NCBI RefSeq assembly: GCF_024502345.1
Contig: NZ_JALDNN010000001.1
DNA: 64,000 nt
DNA from: Escherichia coli
GTDB taxonomy: Bacteria; Pseudomonadota; Gammaproteobacteria; Enterobacterales; Enterobacteriaceae
Reading direction: 5' to 3' (one strand)
Part shown: one piece after another, positions 11,162 to 18,751 of the stretch
Numbering within the stretch: the first letter of the stretch is position 1
Layout: each line of letters opens with the position of its first letter
Position numbers and translations under genes: made by a program
Notes under the pieces: model-generated
Seen by the model: the letters and a program-made list of their open reading frames with translations, nothing else
Databases searched by the model: none
Told to the model about the DNA's origin: nothing

Positions 11162-12679
11162 ATGTGCGGTATTGTCGGTATCGCCGGTGTTATGCCGGTT
11201 AACCAGTCGATTTATGATGCCTTAACGGTGCTTCAGCATCGCGGTCAGGATGCCGCCGGCATCATCACCATAGATGCCAATAACTGCTTCCGATTGCGTA
11301 AAGCGAACGGGCTGGTGAGCGATGTATTTGAAGCTCGCCATATGCAGCGTTTGCAGGGCAATATGGGCATTGGTCATGTGCGTTACCCTACGGCTGGCAG
11401 CTCCAGCGCCTCTGAAGCGCAGCCGTTTTACGTTAACTCCCCGTATGGCATTACGCTTGCCCACAACGGCAATCTGACCAACGCTCACGAGTTGCGTAAA
11501 AAACTGTTTGAAGAAAAACGCCGCCACATCAACACCACTTCCGACTCGGAAATTCTGCTTAATATCTTCGCCAGCGAGCTGGACAATTTCCGCCACTACC
11601 CGCTGGAAGCCGACAATATTTTCGCTGCCATTGCTGCCACAAACCGCTTAATCCGCGGCGCGTATGCCTGTGTGGCGATGATTATCGGCCACGGTATGGT
11701 TGCTTTCCGCGATCCAAACGGGATTCGTCCGCTGGTACTGGGAAAACGTGATATTGACGAGAACCGTACAGAATATATGGTCGCTTCCGAAAGCGTAGCG
11801 CTCGATACGCTGGGCTTTGATTTTCTGCGTGACGTCGCGCCGGGCGAAGCGATTTACATCACTGAAGAAGGGCAGTTGTTTACCCGTCAATGTGCTGACA
11901 ATCCGGTCAGCAATCCGTGCCTGTTTGAGTATGTATACTTTGCCCGCCCGGACTCGTTTATCGACAAAATTTCCGTTTACAGCGCGCGTGTGAATATGGG
12001 CACGAAACTGGGTGAGAAAATTGCCCGCGAATGGGAAGATCTGGATATCGACGTGGTGATCCCGATCCCGGAAACCTCGTGTGATATCGCGCTGGAAATT
12101 GCTCGTATTCTGGGCAAGCCGTACCGCCAGGGCTTCGTTAAAAACCGCTATGTTGGCCGCACCTTCATCATGCCGGGCCAGCAGCTGCGTCGTAAGTCCG
12201 TGCGCCGTAAACTGAACGCCAACCGCGCCGAGTTCCGCGATAAAAACGTCCTGCTGGTCGACGACTCCATCGTCCGTGGCACCACTTCTGAGCAGATTAT
12301 CGAGATGGCACGCGAAGCCGGAGCGAAGAAAGTGTACCTCGCTTCTGCGGCACCGGAAATTCGCTTCCCGAACGTTTATGGTATTGATATGCCGAGCGCC
12401 ACGGAGCTTATCGCTCACGGTCGCGAAGTTGATGAAATTCGCCAGATCATCGGTGCTGACGGGTTGATTTTCCAGGATCTGAACGATCTGATCGACGCCG
12501 TTCGCGCTGAAAATCCGGATATCCAGCAGTTTGAATGCTCGGTGTTCAACGGCGTCTACGTCACCAAAGATGTTGATCAGGGCTACCTCGATTTCCTCGA
12601 TACGTTACGTAATGATGACGCCAAAGCAGTGCAACGTCAGAACGAAGTGGAAAATCTCGAAATGCATAACGAAGGATGA
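11162..12679 (+). CDS. purF: amidophosphoribosyltransferase
   Basis: 505-aa ORF; N-terminal nucleophile MCGIVGI (class II glutamine amidotransferase); PRTase domain. Confidence 0.95.
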
Positions 12680-12773
12680 TGCCTTCGCTGAGGGTGCCGG
12701 TCTGGCACCCTGACTTGCAACTCCCGCCGAAATCCTGCAAAGTCTGCCTGCAAGTCTGACAGGGCAACTATTT

Positions 12774-13343
12774 ATGAAACGACTCATTGTAGGCATCAGC
12801 GGTGCCAGCGGCGCGATTTATGGCGTGCGCTTATTACAGGTTCTGCGCGATGTCACAGATATCGAAACGCATCTGGTGATGAGCCAGGCAGCGCGCCAGA
12901 CCTTATCCCTCGAAACGGATTTTTCTCTGCGCGAAGTGCAGGCATTAGCCGATGTCACGCACGATGCGCGCGATATTGCCGCCAGCATCTCTTCCGGTTC
13001 TTTCCAGACGCTGGGGATGGTGATTTTACCCTGTTCAATCAAAACCCTTTCCGGCATTGTCCATAGCTATACTGATGGCTTACTGACCCGTGCGGCAGAT
13101 GTGGTGCTGAAAGAGCGTCGCCCGTTGGTGCTCTGCGTGCGTGAAACACCATTGCACTTAGGCCATCTGCGTTTAATGACTCAGGCGGCAGAAATCGGTG
13201 CGGTGATTATGCCTCCCGTTCCGGCGTTTTATCATCGCCCGCAATCCCTTGATGATGTGATAAATCAGACGGTTAATCGTGTTCTTGACCAGTTTGCAAT
13301 AACCCTTCCTGAAGATCTCTTTGCCCGCTGGCAGGGCGCATAA
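12774..13343 (+). CDS. ubiX: flavin prenyltransferase UbiX
   Basis: 189-aa ORF; flavoprotein motif GISGASGA. Confidence 0.9.
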   Translation: MKRLIVGISGASGAIYGVRLLQVLRDVTDIETHLVMSQAARQTLSLETDFSLREVQALADVTHDARDIAASISSGSFQTLGMVILPCSIKTLSGIVHSYTDGLLTRAADVVLKERRPLVLCVRETPLHLGHLRLMTQAAEIGAVIMPPVPAFYHRPQSLDDVINQTVNRVLDQFAITLPEDLFARWQGA

Positions 13344-13351
13344 CTCCGCTG

Positions 13352-13375
13352 TTGCCCTGTTTCAGGGCAATTTTG
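13352..13375 (+). terminator. rho-independent terminator after ubiX
   Basis: Stem ttgccct/agggcaa, loop gtttc, then tttt. Confidence 0.6.
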
Positions 13376-13524
13376 CAACCGCGATCAAATCCTCGACATT
13401 TTGTTTCTGCCATTCAATCGAAACGCTGCGATTCAACCGCTATACCTGCTATCTTCAACTTCAGGACAATAATGCAACGTCTTATTAACATATTTAACGT
13501 TGAATGTTACTGTTGTCGTCAAGA

Positions 13525-13540
13525 TGGCATAAGACCTGCA
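13525..13540 (+). promoter_or_regulatory. sigma54 (-24/-12) promoter candidate for argT
   Basis: TGGCAT-N5-CTGCA matches TGGCAC-N5-TTGCA with GG and GC correctly spaced; lies about 70 nt upstream of the argT ATG. Confidence 0.6.
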
Positions 13541-13608
13541 TGAAAGAGCCTGCAAACACACAACACAATACACAACATAAAAAAGCCATTTTCACTTGAG
13601 GGTTATGT

Positions 13609-14391
13609 ATGAAGAAGTCGATTCTCGCTCTGTCTTTGTTAGTCGGTCTCTCCGCAGCGGCTTCCAGCTATGCGGCGCTACCGGAGACGGTACGTATCGG
13701 AACCGATACCACCTATGCGCCGTTCTCGTCGAAAGATGCTAAAGGTGATTTTGTTGGCTTTGATATCGATCTCGGTAACGAGATGTGCAAACGGATGCAG
13801 GTGAAATGTACCTGGGTTGCCAGTGACTTTGACGCGCTGATCCCCTCACTGAAAGCGAAAAAAATCGACGCCATTATTTCGTCGCTTTCCATTACCGATA
13901 AACGTCAGCAGGAGATTGCCTTCTCCGACAAGCTGTACGCCGCAGATTCTCGTTTGATTGCTGCCAAAGGTTCACCGATTCAGCCAACGCTGGATTCACT
14001 GAAAGGTAAACATGTTGGTGTGCTGCAGGGATCAACCCAGGAAGCTTACGCTAACGAGACCTGGCGTAGCAAAGGCGTGGATGTGGTGGCCTATGCCAAC
14101 CAGGATTTGGTCTATTCCGATCTGGCTGCAGGACGTCTGGATGCTGCGTTACAAGATGAAGTTGCTGCCAGCGAAGGATTCCTCAAGCAACCTGCTGGTA
14201 AAGATTTCGCCTTTGCTGGCTCATCAGTAAAAGACAAAAAATACTTCGGTGATGGCACCGGTGTAGGGCTACGTAAAGATGATGCTGAACTGACGGCTGC
14301 CTTCAATAAGGCGCTTGGCGAGCTGCGTCAGGACGGCACCTACGACAAGATGGCGAAAAAGTATTTCGACTTTAATGTCTACGGTGACTGA
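13609..14391 (+). CDS. argT: lysine/arginine/ornithine periplasmic binding protein
   Basis: 260-aa ORF with a signal peptide; paralog of the downstream hisJ. Confidence 0.9.
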
Positions 14392-14611
14392 TACGTCGCT
14401 GGGAAGTTGTACCTGATGGAATGATCATCATGGTGCACGCCAGGTTTGTTGCACTATCGTGGTGCATTGAAATGCATACTTAAGCATTTTTAATGAAAAA
14501 TAATACGTCTAACGGGGCGGGATATTTTGCCTTGATGGTCAATTTTATGGCACGATAAGTGTAACAAACCTGTAAATATTCCCTATAAAAAGACTGTCAG
14601 TTGAGGACATT

Positions 14612-15394
14612 ATGAAAAAACTGGTGCTATCGCTCTCTCTGGTTCTGGCCTTCTCCAGCGCAACTGCGGCGTTTGCTGCGATTCCGCAAAACATCCGCAT
14701 CGGTACCGACCCGACCTATGCGCCATTTGAATCAAAAAATTCACAAGGCGAACTGGTTGGCTTCGATATCGATCTGGCAAAGGAATTATGCAAACGCATC
14801 AATACGCAATGTACGTTTGTCGAAAATCCGCTGGATGCGTTAATCCCGTCCTTAAAAGCGAAGAAGATTGACGCCATCATGTCATCGCTTTCCATTACGG
14901 AAAAACGTCAGCAAGAAATAGCCTTCACCGACAAACTGTACGCTGCCGATTCTCGTTTGGTGGTGGCGAAAAATTCTGACATTCAGCCGACAGTCGAGTC
15001 GCTGAAAGGCAAACGGGTAGGCGTATTGCAGGGCACCACCCAGGAGACGTTCGGTAATGAACATTGGGCACCAAAAGGCATTGAAATCGTCTCGTATCAG
15101 GGGCAGGACAACATTTATTCTGACCTGACTGCCGGACGTATTGATGCCGCGTTCCAGGATGAGGTCGCTGCCAGCGAAGGTTTCCTCAAACAACCTGTCG
15201 GTAAAGATTACAAATTCGGTGGCCCGTCTGTTAAAGATGAAAAACTGTTTGGCGTAGGGACCGGCATGGGCCTGCGTAAAGAAGATAACGAACTGCGCGA
15301 AGCACTGAACAAAGCCTTTGCCGAAATGCGCGCTGACGGTACTTACGAGAAATTAGCGAAAAAGTACTTCGATTTTGATGTTTATGGTGGCTAA
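14612..15394 (+). CDS. hisJ: histidine periplasmic binding protein
   Basis: 260-aa ORF with a signal peptide; family-3 solute-binding protein; directly upstream of hisQMP. Confidence 0.9.
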
Positions 15395-15418
15395 TCGCCA
15401 TCGGTGAAAGAAAGCCCG

Positions 15419-15442
15419 CTCCCTTCGGGTAACCGGAGGGAG
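15419..15442 (+). other. intercistronic stem-loop between hisJ and hisQ
   Basis: cucccuucgg/ccggagggag stem (two G-U pairs) capped by a GUAA (GNRA) tetraloop. Confidence 0.5.
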
Positions 15443-15483
15443 ACAAGAGGCGGTAATTCACCACACACGACAGGACAGGCAGC

Positions 15484-16170
15484 ATGTTGTATGGGTTTTC
15501 AGGTGTTATTTTACAGGGTGCGCTCGTCACGCTGGAGCTGGCTATCAGCTCTGTAGTGCTCGCTGTAATCATCGGTTTAATTGGCGCTGGCGGTAAGCTC
15601 TCGCAAAATCGGCTTTCGGGGCTGATTTTCGAAGGGTACACCACGCTGATTCGTGGCGTGCCGGACTTAGTGTTGATGCTGCTGATTTTCTACGGTTTGC
15701 AGATTGCGCTAAACACGGTGACGGAGGCGATGGGCGTCGGGCAGATTGATATCGATCCGATGGTCGCTGGTATTATCACTCTCGGTTTTATCTACGGTGC
15801 TTATTTTACCGAAACGTTCCGTGGTGCTTTTATGGCAGTGCCGAAAGGACATATAGAGGCGGCGACGGCGTTCGGTTTTACTCGTGGGCAAGTGTTTCGG
15901 CGGATCATGTTTCCGGCGATGATGCGTTACGCCCTGCCAGGCATTGGCAACAACTGGCAGGTGATCCTCAAATCTACCGCACTGGTTTCGTTACTCGGCC
16001 TGGAAGATGTGGTCAAAGCCACCCAACTGGCAGGCAAAAGTACCTGGGAACCGTTCTATTTCGCCATCGTCTGTGGCGTGATTTACCTGGTTTTCACCAC
16101 TGTTTCCAATGGTGTGCTGCTGTTCCTTGAGCGCCGCTACTCCGTGGGTGTGAAGAGGGCTGACCTGTGA
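15484..16170 (+). CDS. hisQ: histidine/LAO ABC transporter permease
   Basis: 228-aa membrane ORF; ABC permease EAA-type motif EAATAFGFTRGQ. Confidence 0.9.
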   Translation: MLYGFSGVILQGALVTLELAISSVVLAVIIGLIGAGGKLSQNRLSGLIFEGYTTLIRGVPDLVLMLLIFYGLQIALNTVTEAMGVGQIDIDPMVAGIITLGFIYGAYFTETFRGAFMAVPKGHIEAATAFGFTRGQVFRRIMFPAMMRYALPGIGNNWQVILKSTALVSLLGLEDVVKATQLAGKSTWEPFYFAIVCGVIYLVFTTVSNGVLLFLERRYSVGVKRADL

Positions 16171-16883
16171 TCGAAATCTTACATGAATACTGGAAACCGC
16201 TGCTGTGGACCGACGGTTATCGCTTTACTGGTGTGGCGATCACTCTGTGGCTGCTTATTTTGTCGGTAGTGATAGGCGGAGTCCTGGCGCTGTTTCTGGC
16301 GATTGGTCGTGTCTCCAGTAATAAATACATCCAGTTTCCAATCTGGTTATTTACCTATATTTTTCGCGGTACGCCGCTGTATGTTCAGTTGCTGGTGTTC
16401 TATTCCGGCATGTACACGCTTGAGATTGTTAAGGGAACCGAATTCCTTAACGCTTTCTTCCGCAGTGGCCTGAACTGTACCGTGCTGGCGCTGACGCTTA
16501 ACACCTGCGCTTACACTACCGAGATTTTTGCTGGGGCAATCCGTTCGGTTCCGCATGGGGAAATTGAAGCCGCCAGAGCCTATGGCTTCTCGACTTTTAA
16601 AATGTATCGTTGCATTATTTTGCCTTCTGCGCTGCGTATTGCGTTACCGGCATACAGCAACGAAGTGATCCTGATGCTGCACTCTACTGCGCTGGCGTTT
16701 ACGGCCACTGTGCCGGATCTGCTGAAAATAGCCCGCGATATTAACGCCGCCACGTATCAACCTTTTACCGCCTTCGGCATTGCCGCGGTGCTCTATTTAA
16801 TCATCTCTTATGTCCTGATCAGCCTCTTTCGCAGAGCGGAAAAACGCTGGTTGCAGCATGTGAAACCTTCTTCAACGCACTGA
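16167..16883 (+). CDS. hisM: histidine/LAO ABC transporter permease
   Basis: 238-aa membrane [15 protein letters not shown] motif; 4-nt overlap with hisQ. Confidence 0.9.
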
Positions 16884-16890
16884 GAATACG

Positions 16891-17664
16891 ATGTCCGAGA
16901 ATAAATTAAACGTTATCGATTTGCACAAACGCTACGGCGAACACGAAGTGCTGAAAGGGGTCTCACTACAAGCGAATGCCGGAGATGTAATAAGCATCAT
17001 CGGATCGTCGGGCTCGGGAAAAAGTACCTTTCTGCGCTGCATTAACTTCCTCGAAAAACCGAGCGAAGGATCGATCGTGGTCAATGGCCAGACGATCAAT
17101 CTGGTGCGCGACAAAGACGGTCAACTCAAAGTCGCCGATAAAAATCAACTGCGCTTACTGCGCACACGCCTGACGATGGTATTCCAGCACTTCAATCTCT
17201 GGAGCCATATGACGGTGCTGGAAAACGTCATGGAAGCGCCGATTCAGGTGTTGGGCCTGAGCAAGCAGGAAGCGCGCGAGCGGGCGGTGAAGTATCTGGC
17301 AAAAGTCGGGATAGACGAACGTGCACAGGGGAAATATCCGGTGCATCTTTCCGGCGGTCAGCAACAGCGTGTTTCTATCGCGCGGGCGCTGGCGATGGAA
17401 CCGGAAGTTTTACTGTTTGATGAACCTACCTCGGCGCTCGATCCTGAACTGGTAGGCGAAGTGCTGCGCATTATGCAGCAGCTGGCGGAAGAGGGAAAAA
17501 CCATGGTGGTAGTGACTCACGAAATGGGCTTTGCTCGTCATGTTTCTACTCACGTCATTTTCCTCCATCAGGGGAAAATAGAGGAAGAAGGCGCGCCGGA
17601 GCAGTTATTTGGCAACCCGCAAAGCCCTCGTCTGCAACAGTTCCTTAAAGGTTCGCTGAAATAA
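16891..17664 (+). CDS. hisP: histidine/LAO ABC transporter ATP-binding protein
   Basis: 257-aa ORF; Walker [13 protein letters not shown] signature LSGGQQQR, Walker [12 protein letters not shown]. Confidence 0.95.
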
Positions 17665-17670
17665 TTGCCT

Positions 17671-17700
17671 CTCCGGTGGCTAACGCCGCCGGAGTATTTT
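17671..17700 (+). terminator. rho-independent terminator after hisP
   Basis: Stem ctccggtggc/gccgccggag followed by tatttt. Confidence 0.6.
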
Positions 17701-17860
17701 CAAGGGGAATTTGCGAGTCAGCTTCCGCTGAAATGTAAAAGTTGCAGTCCGCTAAAAATAGTTCTGAATTCGCTGTCCAAAGATAAAAACTGCCTGCTGC
17801 ATTGGGTGTTAATCGTGGTTATTGTCGCGTCATCTTAAATTTGAGGGGTGACGGAACGCC

Positions 17861-18751
17861 ATGACAATATCGACAACTTCCACGCCGCATGATGCGGTAT
17901 TTAAATCTTTTTTACGCCATCCAGACACCGCGCGGGATTTTATTGATATTCATCTTCCCGCGCCGCTGCGCAAACTGTGTGATTTAACGACGCTTAAACT
18001 GGAACCAAACAGTTTTATTGATGACGACCTGCGGCAATATTATTCCGACCTCTTGTGGTCTGTGAAAACGCAGGAGGGAGTGGGTTATATTTATGTAGTG
18101 ATAGAGCACCAAAGTAAGCCGGAAGAATTAATGGCTTTTCGCATGATGCGTTATTCCATTGCGGCAATGCAAAACCATCTTGATGCGGGCTATAAAGAGC
18201 TTCCATTGGTGATCCCGATGCTGTTTTATCATGGTTGCAGAAGTCCTTATCCTTATTCACTCTGCTGGCTTGATGAATTTGCCGAGCCTGCTATAGCCCG
18301 CAAAATATATTCATCAGCGTTTCCGTTGGTGGATATTACCGTGGTGCCGGATGACGAGATTATGCAACACCGCAAAATGGCGCTGTTGGAGTTAATTCAG
18401 AAACATATTCGTCAGCGCGATCTGTTGGGATTAGTCGACCAAATTGTTTCGCTGCTAGTTACAGGGAACACTAATGACAGACAGCTAAAAGCCCTGTTTA
18501 ATTACGTATTACAAACAGGGGATGCCCAGCGTTTTCGTGCATTTATTGGTGAGATAGCGGAACGCGCACCACAAGAAAAGGAGAAACTGATGACCATTGC
18601 TGACAGATTACGTGAAGAAGGCGCAATGCAGGGCAAACACGAAGAAGCCCTGCGTATTGCTCAGGAGATGCTGGATAGAGGTTTAGACAGAGAGTTAGTT
18701 ATGATGGTGACCCGACTTTCACCAGACGATCTTATCGCGCAAAGCCACTAA
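17861..18751 (+). CDS. rpnB: recombination-promoting nuclease RpnB (YhgA-like, PD-(D/E)XK family)
   Basis: 296-aa ORF; N-terminal FKSFL/HDAVFK YhgA-like signature; sits between hisP and yfcH as K-12 yfcI does. Confidence 0.8.
18590..18751 (+). CDS. candidate nested small protein: in-frame internal start in the rpnB 3' end (53 aa, identical to the RpnB C-terminal tail)
   Basis: Internal ATG at 18590 preceded by AAGGAG (18578-18583) with a 6-nt spacer; no expression evidence is available from sequence. Confidence 0.35.

Follow-up and report, generated by a model that had tools for sequence, protein, structure and literature searches.

The window, the whole 64,000-nucleotide stretch of Escherichia coli DNA that was analysed, spans fabB through the nuo operon and holds two consecutive genes for periplasmic binding proteins, argT (13609-14391) and hisJ (14612-15394), followed by hisQ (15484-16170, 228 codons), hisM (16167-16883, 238 codons) and hisP (16891-17664, 257 codons), all on the + strand, as are the control elements described below. 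Directly upstream of argT, a 189-codon ORF at 12774-13343 matches the UbiX model and was assigned to ubiX. A non-coding spacer of 265 nt (13344-13608) lies before argT and one of 220 nt (14392-14611) before hisJ. An earlier note on this DNA had described two binding proteins of equal length that are homologous from end to end, and this is borne out: both ORFs encode 260-aa precursors and begin and end exactly at the coordinates given here. The product of argT, the periplasmic lysine/arginine/ornithine-binding protein (LAO), matches the NCBIfam equivalog model NF011586 over residues 1-260 of 260 with 583 bits (cutoff 440) and stays below the cutoff of the HisJ model NF011965 (425 bits, cutoff 459); the periplasmic histidine-binding protein HisJ matches NF011965 over its full length with 599 bits and stays below the cutoff of NF011586, at 435 bits. 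Both proteins match PF00497 (SBP_bac_3), with 141 and 144 bits against a cutoff of 26.4, and both are represented among solved structures, crystal or NMR (1LST, 2LAO, 1LAF and others for LAO; 1HPB, 1HSL and 2M8C for HisJ). Their N-termini, as read from the translations, are hydrophobic and end in A-x-A (SYA|A in ArgT, AFA|A in HisJ), and the crystallised mature chains align from residue 23 in both proteins, which identifies the first 22 residues as a signal peptide.

The downstream genes are equally well supported, HisQ, HisM and HisP matching their models with 479, 465 and 578 bits (cutoffs 319, 306 and 466), and the Walker A motif (GSSGSGKST), the signature LSGGQQQR and the Walker B motif can be read in the HisP translation. 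The 4.4 kb between 13300 and 17700 are 100% identical to the chromosome NZ_CP109924 of E. coli O125ac strain C 236-04A, where the RefSeq annotation gives argT, hisJ, hisQ, hisM and hisP, and the predicted identities of ArgT and HisJ agree between the equivalog models and this annotation. Given that the locus was found in 5424 of 5426 complete E. coli genomes (at least 80% coverage), it is almost certainly the classical argT-hisJQMP locus of the species. A search of Rfam at permissive E-values across 12500-18500 gave no match and hence no known class of cis-regulatory RNA here.

Pairwise alignment of the two proteins by BLASTP, the check proposed for their homology, gave 164 identities in 236 positions (69%), 84% positives, no gaps and an E-value of 1e-129, well outside what chance would give, and the literature likewise states about 70% identity between ArgT and HisJ (PMC6640053; PMC5708682; bioRxiv 10.1101/2023.03.18.532921). 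The genes themselves agree at 68.7% of nucleotides when 780 nt are compared in register, and their starts lie 1003 nt apart. The shared block to which the earlier note had pointed is real, residues 75-116 being identical at 39 of 42 positions; in the pattern in which it was written down, the first 'x' stands for a leucine in both proteins.

A scan of species-representative genomes with HisJ gave 525 relatives, of which the best 80 were retained, each of them from Enterobacteriaceae and together from about 30 genera; the 77 loci with enough upstream DNA form the informative set. The gene order ubiX-argT-hisJ-hisQMP on one strand was seen in 77 of these 77 loci. The two paralogs of one genome share 64-74% of their residues (median 69%). 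Identity among orthologs never falls below 78% for ArgT (median 87.7%) or 81% for HisJ (median 90.0%), and the highest value of any cross-paralog pair is 74.6%. The phylogeny that had been suggested as a further check, a neighbour-joining tree of the 77 Enterobacteriaceae loci, gave a clean split between ArgT and HisJ, and a genus-wise pairing of ArgT with HisJ was looked for in this tree and not seen. These clean clades, together with the absence of any cross-paralog pair above 74.6%, indicate that the duplication predates the sampled radiation and that the copies have not evolved in concert.

The near-identical blocks of the kind seen at residues 75-116 raise the question of whether the tandem copies are kept alike by gene conversion rather than by selection on a shared surface. 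Codons 91-120 would lend themselves to this reading, as the proportion of synonymous differences (pS) falls there to 0.48, somewhat under the gene-wide value of 0.69. However, in codons 76-105, the most conserved block of the protein, pS is 0.71, as saturated as in the rest of the gene, and pN is 0.03, which is the signature of purifying selection and not of conversion; furthermore, the longest run of identical nucleotides between argT and hisJ is 14 nt and the paralog clades are separate, without genus-wise pairing. Conversion as the cause of the blocks is thus hardly credible, and gene conversion or concerted evolution of the pair was rejected on the separate clades and the saturated synonymous sites. 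For the pair in the window the Nei-Gojobori method gave a pS of 0.69, a saturated dS of 1.92, a dN of 0.23 and a dN/dS of 0.12, and the saturated dS and the absence of a conversion tract argue that the duplication is old and that both copies have been maintained by purifying selection. It was most probably an ancient tandem duplication of the gene for a family-3 periplasmic binding protein that gave rise to both ArgT and HisJ, and the long surface blocks, near-identical under purifying selection, presumably owe their conservation to the fit of both proteins to the same HisQM surface.

In the alignment of the 77 genomes, 104 columns hold one and the same residue in all ArgT and HisJ sequences, whereas fixed differences between ArgT and HisJ occupy 14 columns only, F74L and S142T among them. 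Precursor position 74 is phenylalanine in 77 of 77 ArgT and leucine in 77 of 77 HisJ sequences and corresponds to mature Phe52/Leu52, while position 142, serine in ArgT and threonine in HisJ, corresponds to mature Ser120/Thr120. The residues which we take to contact the ligand in the LAO and HisJ crystal structures are Tyr14, Phe/Leu52, Ser69/70/72, Arg77, Leu117, Ser/Thr120, Thr121, Gln122 and Asp161, and mature positions 52 and 120 are, on this assumption, the sole ligand-contacting positions at which the two proteins differ. D33, Y36, S91, S92, S94, R99, L139, T143, Q144 and D183, the other contact residues in precursor numbering, are the same in both proteins of the window. Fixed differences at two pocket positions within a shared scaffold fit a change of specificity by few pocket substitutions. 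An opposite order of ligand affinities in ArgT and HisJ is supported by the literature, ArgT preferring lysine, arginine and ornithine and HisJ preferring histidine, and the specificities have probably diverged via a few pocket residues, above all mature Phe52 against Leu52 and Ser120 against Thr120.

The two binding proteins had also been said to share one permease/ATPase set, and this too holds: a single hisQ-hisM-hisP set lies directly downstream in the window and, allowing for loci truncated on that side, in 77 of 77 loci, and shared use is stated in published work. That ArgT and HisJ deliver to the same HisQMP2 complex rests on this literature, which concerns Salmonella and E. coli K-12 (PMC6640053; PMC5708682; bioRxiv 10.1101/2023.03.18.532921). 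Both proteins would be exported by means of the 22-residue signal peptide, close around their ligand in the periplasm and dock on HisQ-HisM-(HisP)2, which would then hydrolyse ATP to import the ligand.

The further claim that only the binding component was duplicated fits the 220-nt spacer between argT and hisJ, which holds no permease remnant, although this fit falls short of proof. Since the duplication is older than any of the 77 genomes sampled, traces of further genes would by now have eroded, and it is conceivable that a whole operon of binding protein plus permease was duplicated and the second permease/ATPase set later deleted. This scenario is nevertheless quite unlikely for two reasons: first, the argT-hisJ spacer is just 163-327 nt long in every genome compared and holds regulatory motifs but no permease remnants. 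Second, a sigma-54-type promoter and a TTGAGG ribosome-binding region precede both genes, which fits a duplicated unit that consisted of a promoter plus one gene. When the regions upstream of argT and hisJ were aligned with each other, nothing convincing in the way of longer homology emerged apart from this -24/-12-type element and the TTGAGG region, and the inclusion of the promoter in the duplicated unit is best regarded as suggestive.

Upstream of argT, the sigma-54 (-24/-12) promoter TGGCATaagacCTGCA at 13525-13540 was assigned by pattern match and conservation, the pattern being TGGCAC-N5-TTGCA with GG at -24 and GC at -12. Matches to this pattern with two mismatches occur across the window at chance level (24 against 27 expected), so that the weight of the assignment rests on conservation: a GG-N10-GC element stands 46-89 nt before the argT ATG in 76 of 77 loci. 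Transcription of argT has been reported to depend on sigma-54 and NtrC (PMC6640053), and published gSELEX data place an RpoN peak inside the argT/ubiX spacer. Downstream of this promoter, the leader of argT carries a C/A-rich stretch, AAACACACAACACAATACACAACA, at 13554-13577, identified from its C/A count and from the literature. The highest C/A count per 20-nt window has a median of 18/20 in the 70 nt before argT and of 14/20 in the 50 nt before hisJ (77 loci each). Since argT is listed among the R1-seed targets of GcvB, an interaction that was verified in Salmonella and is conserved in E. coli (PMC9299463), 13554-13577 is likely to be the pairing site for the GcvB R1 seed, the exact stretch having been chosen on composition. 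On this reading, argT has a sigma-54/NtrC promoter and a C/A-rich leader of the GcvB-target kind.

The spacer between argT and hisJ is rich in further elements. Directly after the argT stop codon, at 14408-14437, lies a palindrome of the form TGTACC...GGTGCA with half-sites of the TGCACC/GGTGCA type, and equivalents of the form TGCACC(A)...(T)GGTGCA are found in Citrobacter, Salmonella (where the first half-site is CGCACC), Leclercia, Enterobacter and Kosakonia. No T-run follows the palindrome, which is hence not a canonical terminator; it could form an RNA hairpin, provide an extra contact for NtrC, or both. It is followed at 14450-14466 by the 17-bp NtrC-type dyad TGCACTATCGTGGTGCA, which fits the dyad consensus and is conserved in most of the 16 genera aligned. 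The consensus used, TGCACCA-N3-TGGTGCA, is what we take to be that of NtrC. At 14471-14507, cross-genus alignment reveals a conserved AT-rich element, AATGCATACTTAAGCATT TTT AATGAAAAATAATACG, which contains the arrangement ATGCATACTTAAGC...ATGaAAAA and in which ATGCATACTTAAGC is nearly invariant across the same 16 genera. The element occupies the position of the two ARG boxes of the hisJ operator, which are described as 18 bp each, 3 bp apart and 17 bp upstream of the hisJ -35 (PMC6640053); 14471-14507 presumably comprises these two boxes. Closer to hisJ, the sigma-54-like element TGGCACgataaGTGTA at 14548-14563 has GT, not GC, at -12.

The earlier note had credited each gene with a promoter region of its own, and conserved promoter elements before each gene as well as published promoter data support it. 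The promoter of hisJQMP is reported to be a sigma-70 promoter that is regulated, by repression, by ArgR (PMC6640053). A scan for consensus sigma-70 promoters across 13300-15700 returned 0 against 2.7 expected, from which it follows that the published promoter departs from the consensus, and it is given no exact placement here. Within this spacer, the NtrC ChIP-seq peak of hisJQMP presumably falls at about 14401-14481 of the window, converted by means of K-12 coordinates, which agree both with the spacing of 1003 nt between the genes and with the gSELEX table.

Several papers write argT-hisJQMP as one operon (PMC9299463 among them), and it is possible that argT is simply the first gene of a five-gene operon and that hisJ has no independent promoter of consequence. 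In keeping with this, a scan for terminators between argT and hisJ gave 3 against 2.8 expected, that is, chance level, none of them canonical; in published constructs, a promoter put in place of that of argT drives all five genes; and, among the gSELEX rows listed in the accessible part of the table, the RpoN peak lies solely upstream of argT. However, this is very unlikely for three reasons: first, PhisJ-lacZ fusions are expressed, from a sigma-70 promoter, and respond to ArgR by repression (PMC6640053). Second, the stronger of the two NtrC ChIP-seq peaks belongs to hisJQMP, with a fold value of 23.7 against 5.4 for argT (PMC4066584). Third, the control elements of the spacer are conserved across genera. 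The reading that hisJ has its own promoter region is therefore retained, albeit the two units are not insulated from each other; the two modes of transcription probably occur side by side, and the whole is best described as a nested arrangement. The hisJQMP control region, with its putative NtrC site, ARG boxes, sigma-70 promoter and sigma-54-like element, would allow expression that is partly uncoupled from that of argT.

Two features of the hisJ control region set Escherichia apart. The sigma-54-like element has GT at -12 in 7 of 7 Escherichia loci and so departs from the sigma-54 pattern, which has GC there, whereas most other genera have kept the GC in the homologous element, about 47-56 nt before the hisJ ATG (for example TGGCACGATAACTGCA). 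The element may still function in Escherichia, as a few active sigma-54 promoters do carry GT at -12. As a separate observation, the gSELEX rows listed in the accessible part of the table, with an RpoN peak at argT only, are weak evidence that fits a weakened hisJ sigma-54 element. The second feature is a long-range inverted repeat of 21-22 nt with arms at 14441-14461 and 14551-14572, to which the argT-hisJ spacer owes its strong predicted fold (-79 kcal/mol, z = -6.8). The repeat was found in Escherichia only and is absent from the other genera compared, and the candidate that the spacer holds a conserved RNA structure was rejected on this ground.

The GT at -12 and the inverted repeat are the only small novelty here and the only parts of the locus without a tie to published knowledge. 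They raise the possibility that control of hisJ has been rewired in Escherichia, an ancestral GC having changed to GT and the repeat pairing the region of the NtrC-type site with the promoter and start region of hisJ. Under nitrogen limitation, hisJQMP would then be induced mainly by transcripts that start at the argT sigma-54 promoter and run on into hisJ, in which the long hairpin would signal processing or attenuation, unlike in Salmonella and Citrobacter, where hisJ would use a sigma-54 promoter of its own. Such rewiring is speculative and, on balance, unlikely. The Escherichia-specific promoter changes could interest those who work on Ntr regulation.

Downstream of hisJ, the 89-nt spacer that separates it from hisQ contains a G+C-rich stem-loop, GCTCCCTTCGG-GTAA-CCGGAGGGAG, at 15418-15442 (fold z = -4.1), which is not followed by a T-run. 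A strong hairpin occupies this spacer in 20 of 20 genomes examined, and its sequence differs between them: in Salmonella and in most Citrobacter loci shown, the spacer holds long palindromes rich in G+C that look like pairs of the REP type, in Enterobacter it holds CCCCTCCC/GGGAGGGG, and Klebsiella has another sequence again. That the position of the hairpin has been kept while its sequence has turned over argues for a structural role. By analogy with the Salmonella operon, the hairpin may protect the hisJ message upstream of it and so lead to more binding protein than membrane components. Just upstream of the hisQ start, at 15459-15479, a C/A-rich stretch, CACCACACACGACAGGACAGG, is conserved in Escherichia, Citrobacter and Salmonella. 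As the targeting of hisQ by GcvB has been verified experimentally in E. coli (PMC9299463), this stretch is likely to be the target of GcvB R1, a placement made on its composition and position. Together, the hairpin and the likely GcvB site would probably determine by how much the binding protein outnumbers the membrane components.

In summary, the description from which this analysis set out is correct but what it describes has been known since the early 1980s. The argT-hisJQMP locus is the original case of one ABC importer served by two binding proteins and of divergence in specificity after duplication of the receptor component, and given that it has previously been sequenced, crystallised and genetically dissected, it has little value as a discovery. 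The present analysis shows the annotation to be sound. It also shows an old pair, stable throughout Enterobacteriaceae, in which substitutions in the pocket have become fixed, gene conversion has played no part, and the control elements are each conserved in spite of their divergence.

Compared with argT-hisJQMP of Salmonella typhimurium and E. coli K-12, the locus has the same gene order, the same protein lengths and the same paralog identity of about 70%, as well as the same assignment of regulators, namely sigma-54/NtrC for argT, ArgR/sigma-70 for hisJ and GcvB for argT and hisQ. It differs from Salmonella and most Citrobacter in the hisJ-hisQ spacer, which holds a single non-REP hairpin in 89 nt here and apparent REP pairs in about 140-185 nt there, and from most other genera in the GT, in place of GC, at -12 of the hisJ sigma-54-like element. 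Within E. coli, artPIQM-artJ offers a parallel, in that the paralogous family-3 proteins ArtI and ArtJ serve one ArtQMP2 importer for basic amino acids under the control of ArgR (PMC6640053). It is unlike the present locus in that artI lies within the operon and artJ forms a separate downstream unit and, furthermore, sigma-54 control is reported for argT but not for the art genes (PMC6640053). ArgT and HisJ also match the ArtI and ArtJ models, at about 177-191 bits, which is far under the 425-435 bits that they score against each other's models. A second parallel is livJ/livKHMGF of E. coli, where two paralogous binding proteins of differing specificities (LIV-I and LS) share one LivHMGF set. 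There, too, the extra binding-protein gene lies upstream with its own promoter and both binding-protein genes are GcvB targets, although LIV-I and LS, which bind branched-chain amino acids, belong to a different binding-protein family from ArgT and HisJ.

The spacer between argT and hisJ contains an inverted repeat of 21-22 nt, with arms at 14441-14461 and 14551-14572 that lie approximately 89 nt apart and flank the hisJ operator and promoter. The fold z-score of this spacer, -6.8, is due to the repeat, which among the genomes compared is restricted to Escherichia (E. coli, E. albertii and Escherichia sp.). The sigma-54-like element upstream of hisJ (14548-14563) also carries a feature common to the genus: across the argT-hisJ loci compared (L006-L081), its -12 position reads GT in all Escherichia genomes, and the canonical GC is retained in most other Enterobacteriaceae, for example TGGCACGATAACTGCA. 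Immediately 3' of the argT stop codon there is, in addition, a palindrome (14408-14437) with half-sites of the TGCACC/GGTGCA type spaced approximately 18 nt apart, and similar palindromes are present in Citrobacter, Salmonella, Leclercia, Enterobacter and Kosakonia. This element may form an RNA hairpin at the 3' end of argT, provide an additional contact for NtrC, or do both.

At the protein level, conservation across genera is consistently higher for HisJ than for ArgT (L001-L081), with median ortholog identities of 90.0% and 87.7% respectively; between Citrobacter and E. coli the values are 98% for HisJ and 90-95% for ArgT. The gene following hisP is rpnB (yfcI; 17861-18751), encoding a recombination-promoting nuclease, and it occupies this position in all five Escherichia loci that reach far enough. 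Given that the position is matched outside Escherichia in just one Citrobacter locus, at 65% identity, rpnB looks like a lineage-specific neighbour of hisP. Elsewhere in the window, the dedD-cvpA intergenic region holds three tandem copies of naRNA4 (Rfam RF02564; 10168-10420), whose scores of 73-80 bits exceed the family's gathering score of 59.5. The nuoF-nuoG junction matches the nuoG RNA motif (RF01748; 41185-41227) with 50 bits, where the gathering score is 33.

A strong hairpin lies within the hisJ-hisQ spacer in each of the 20 genomes examined (15395-15483 in the window; spacers of L006-L076), and the hairpin sequences are unrelated among them. In Salmonella, and in the majority of the Citrobacter loci shown, this spacer extends to approximately 140-185 nt and contains long palindromes resembling REP pairs, whereas the E. 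coli spacer is 89 nt in length and has one short hairpin.
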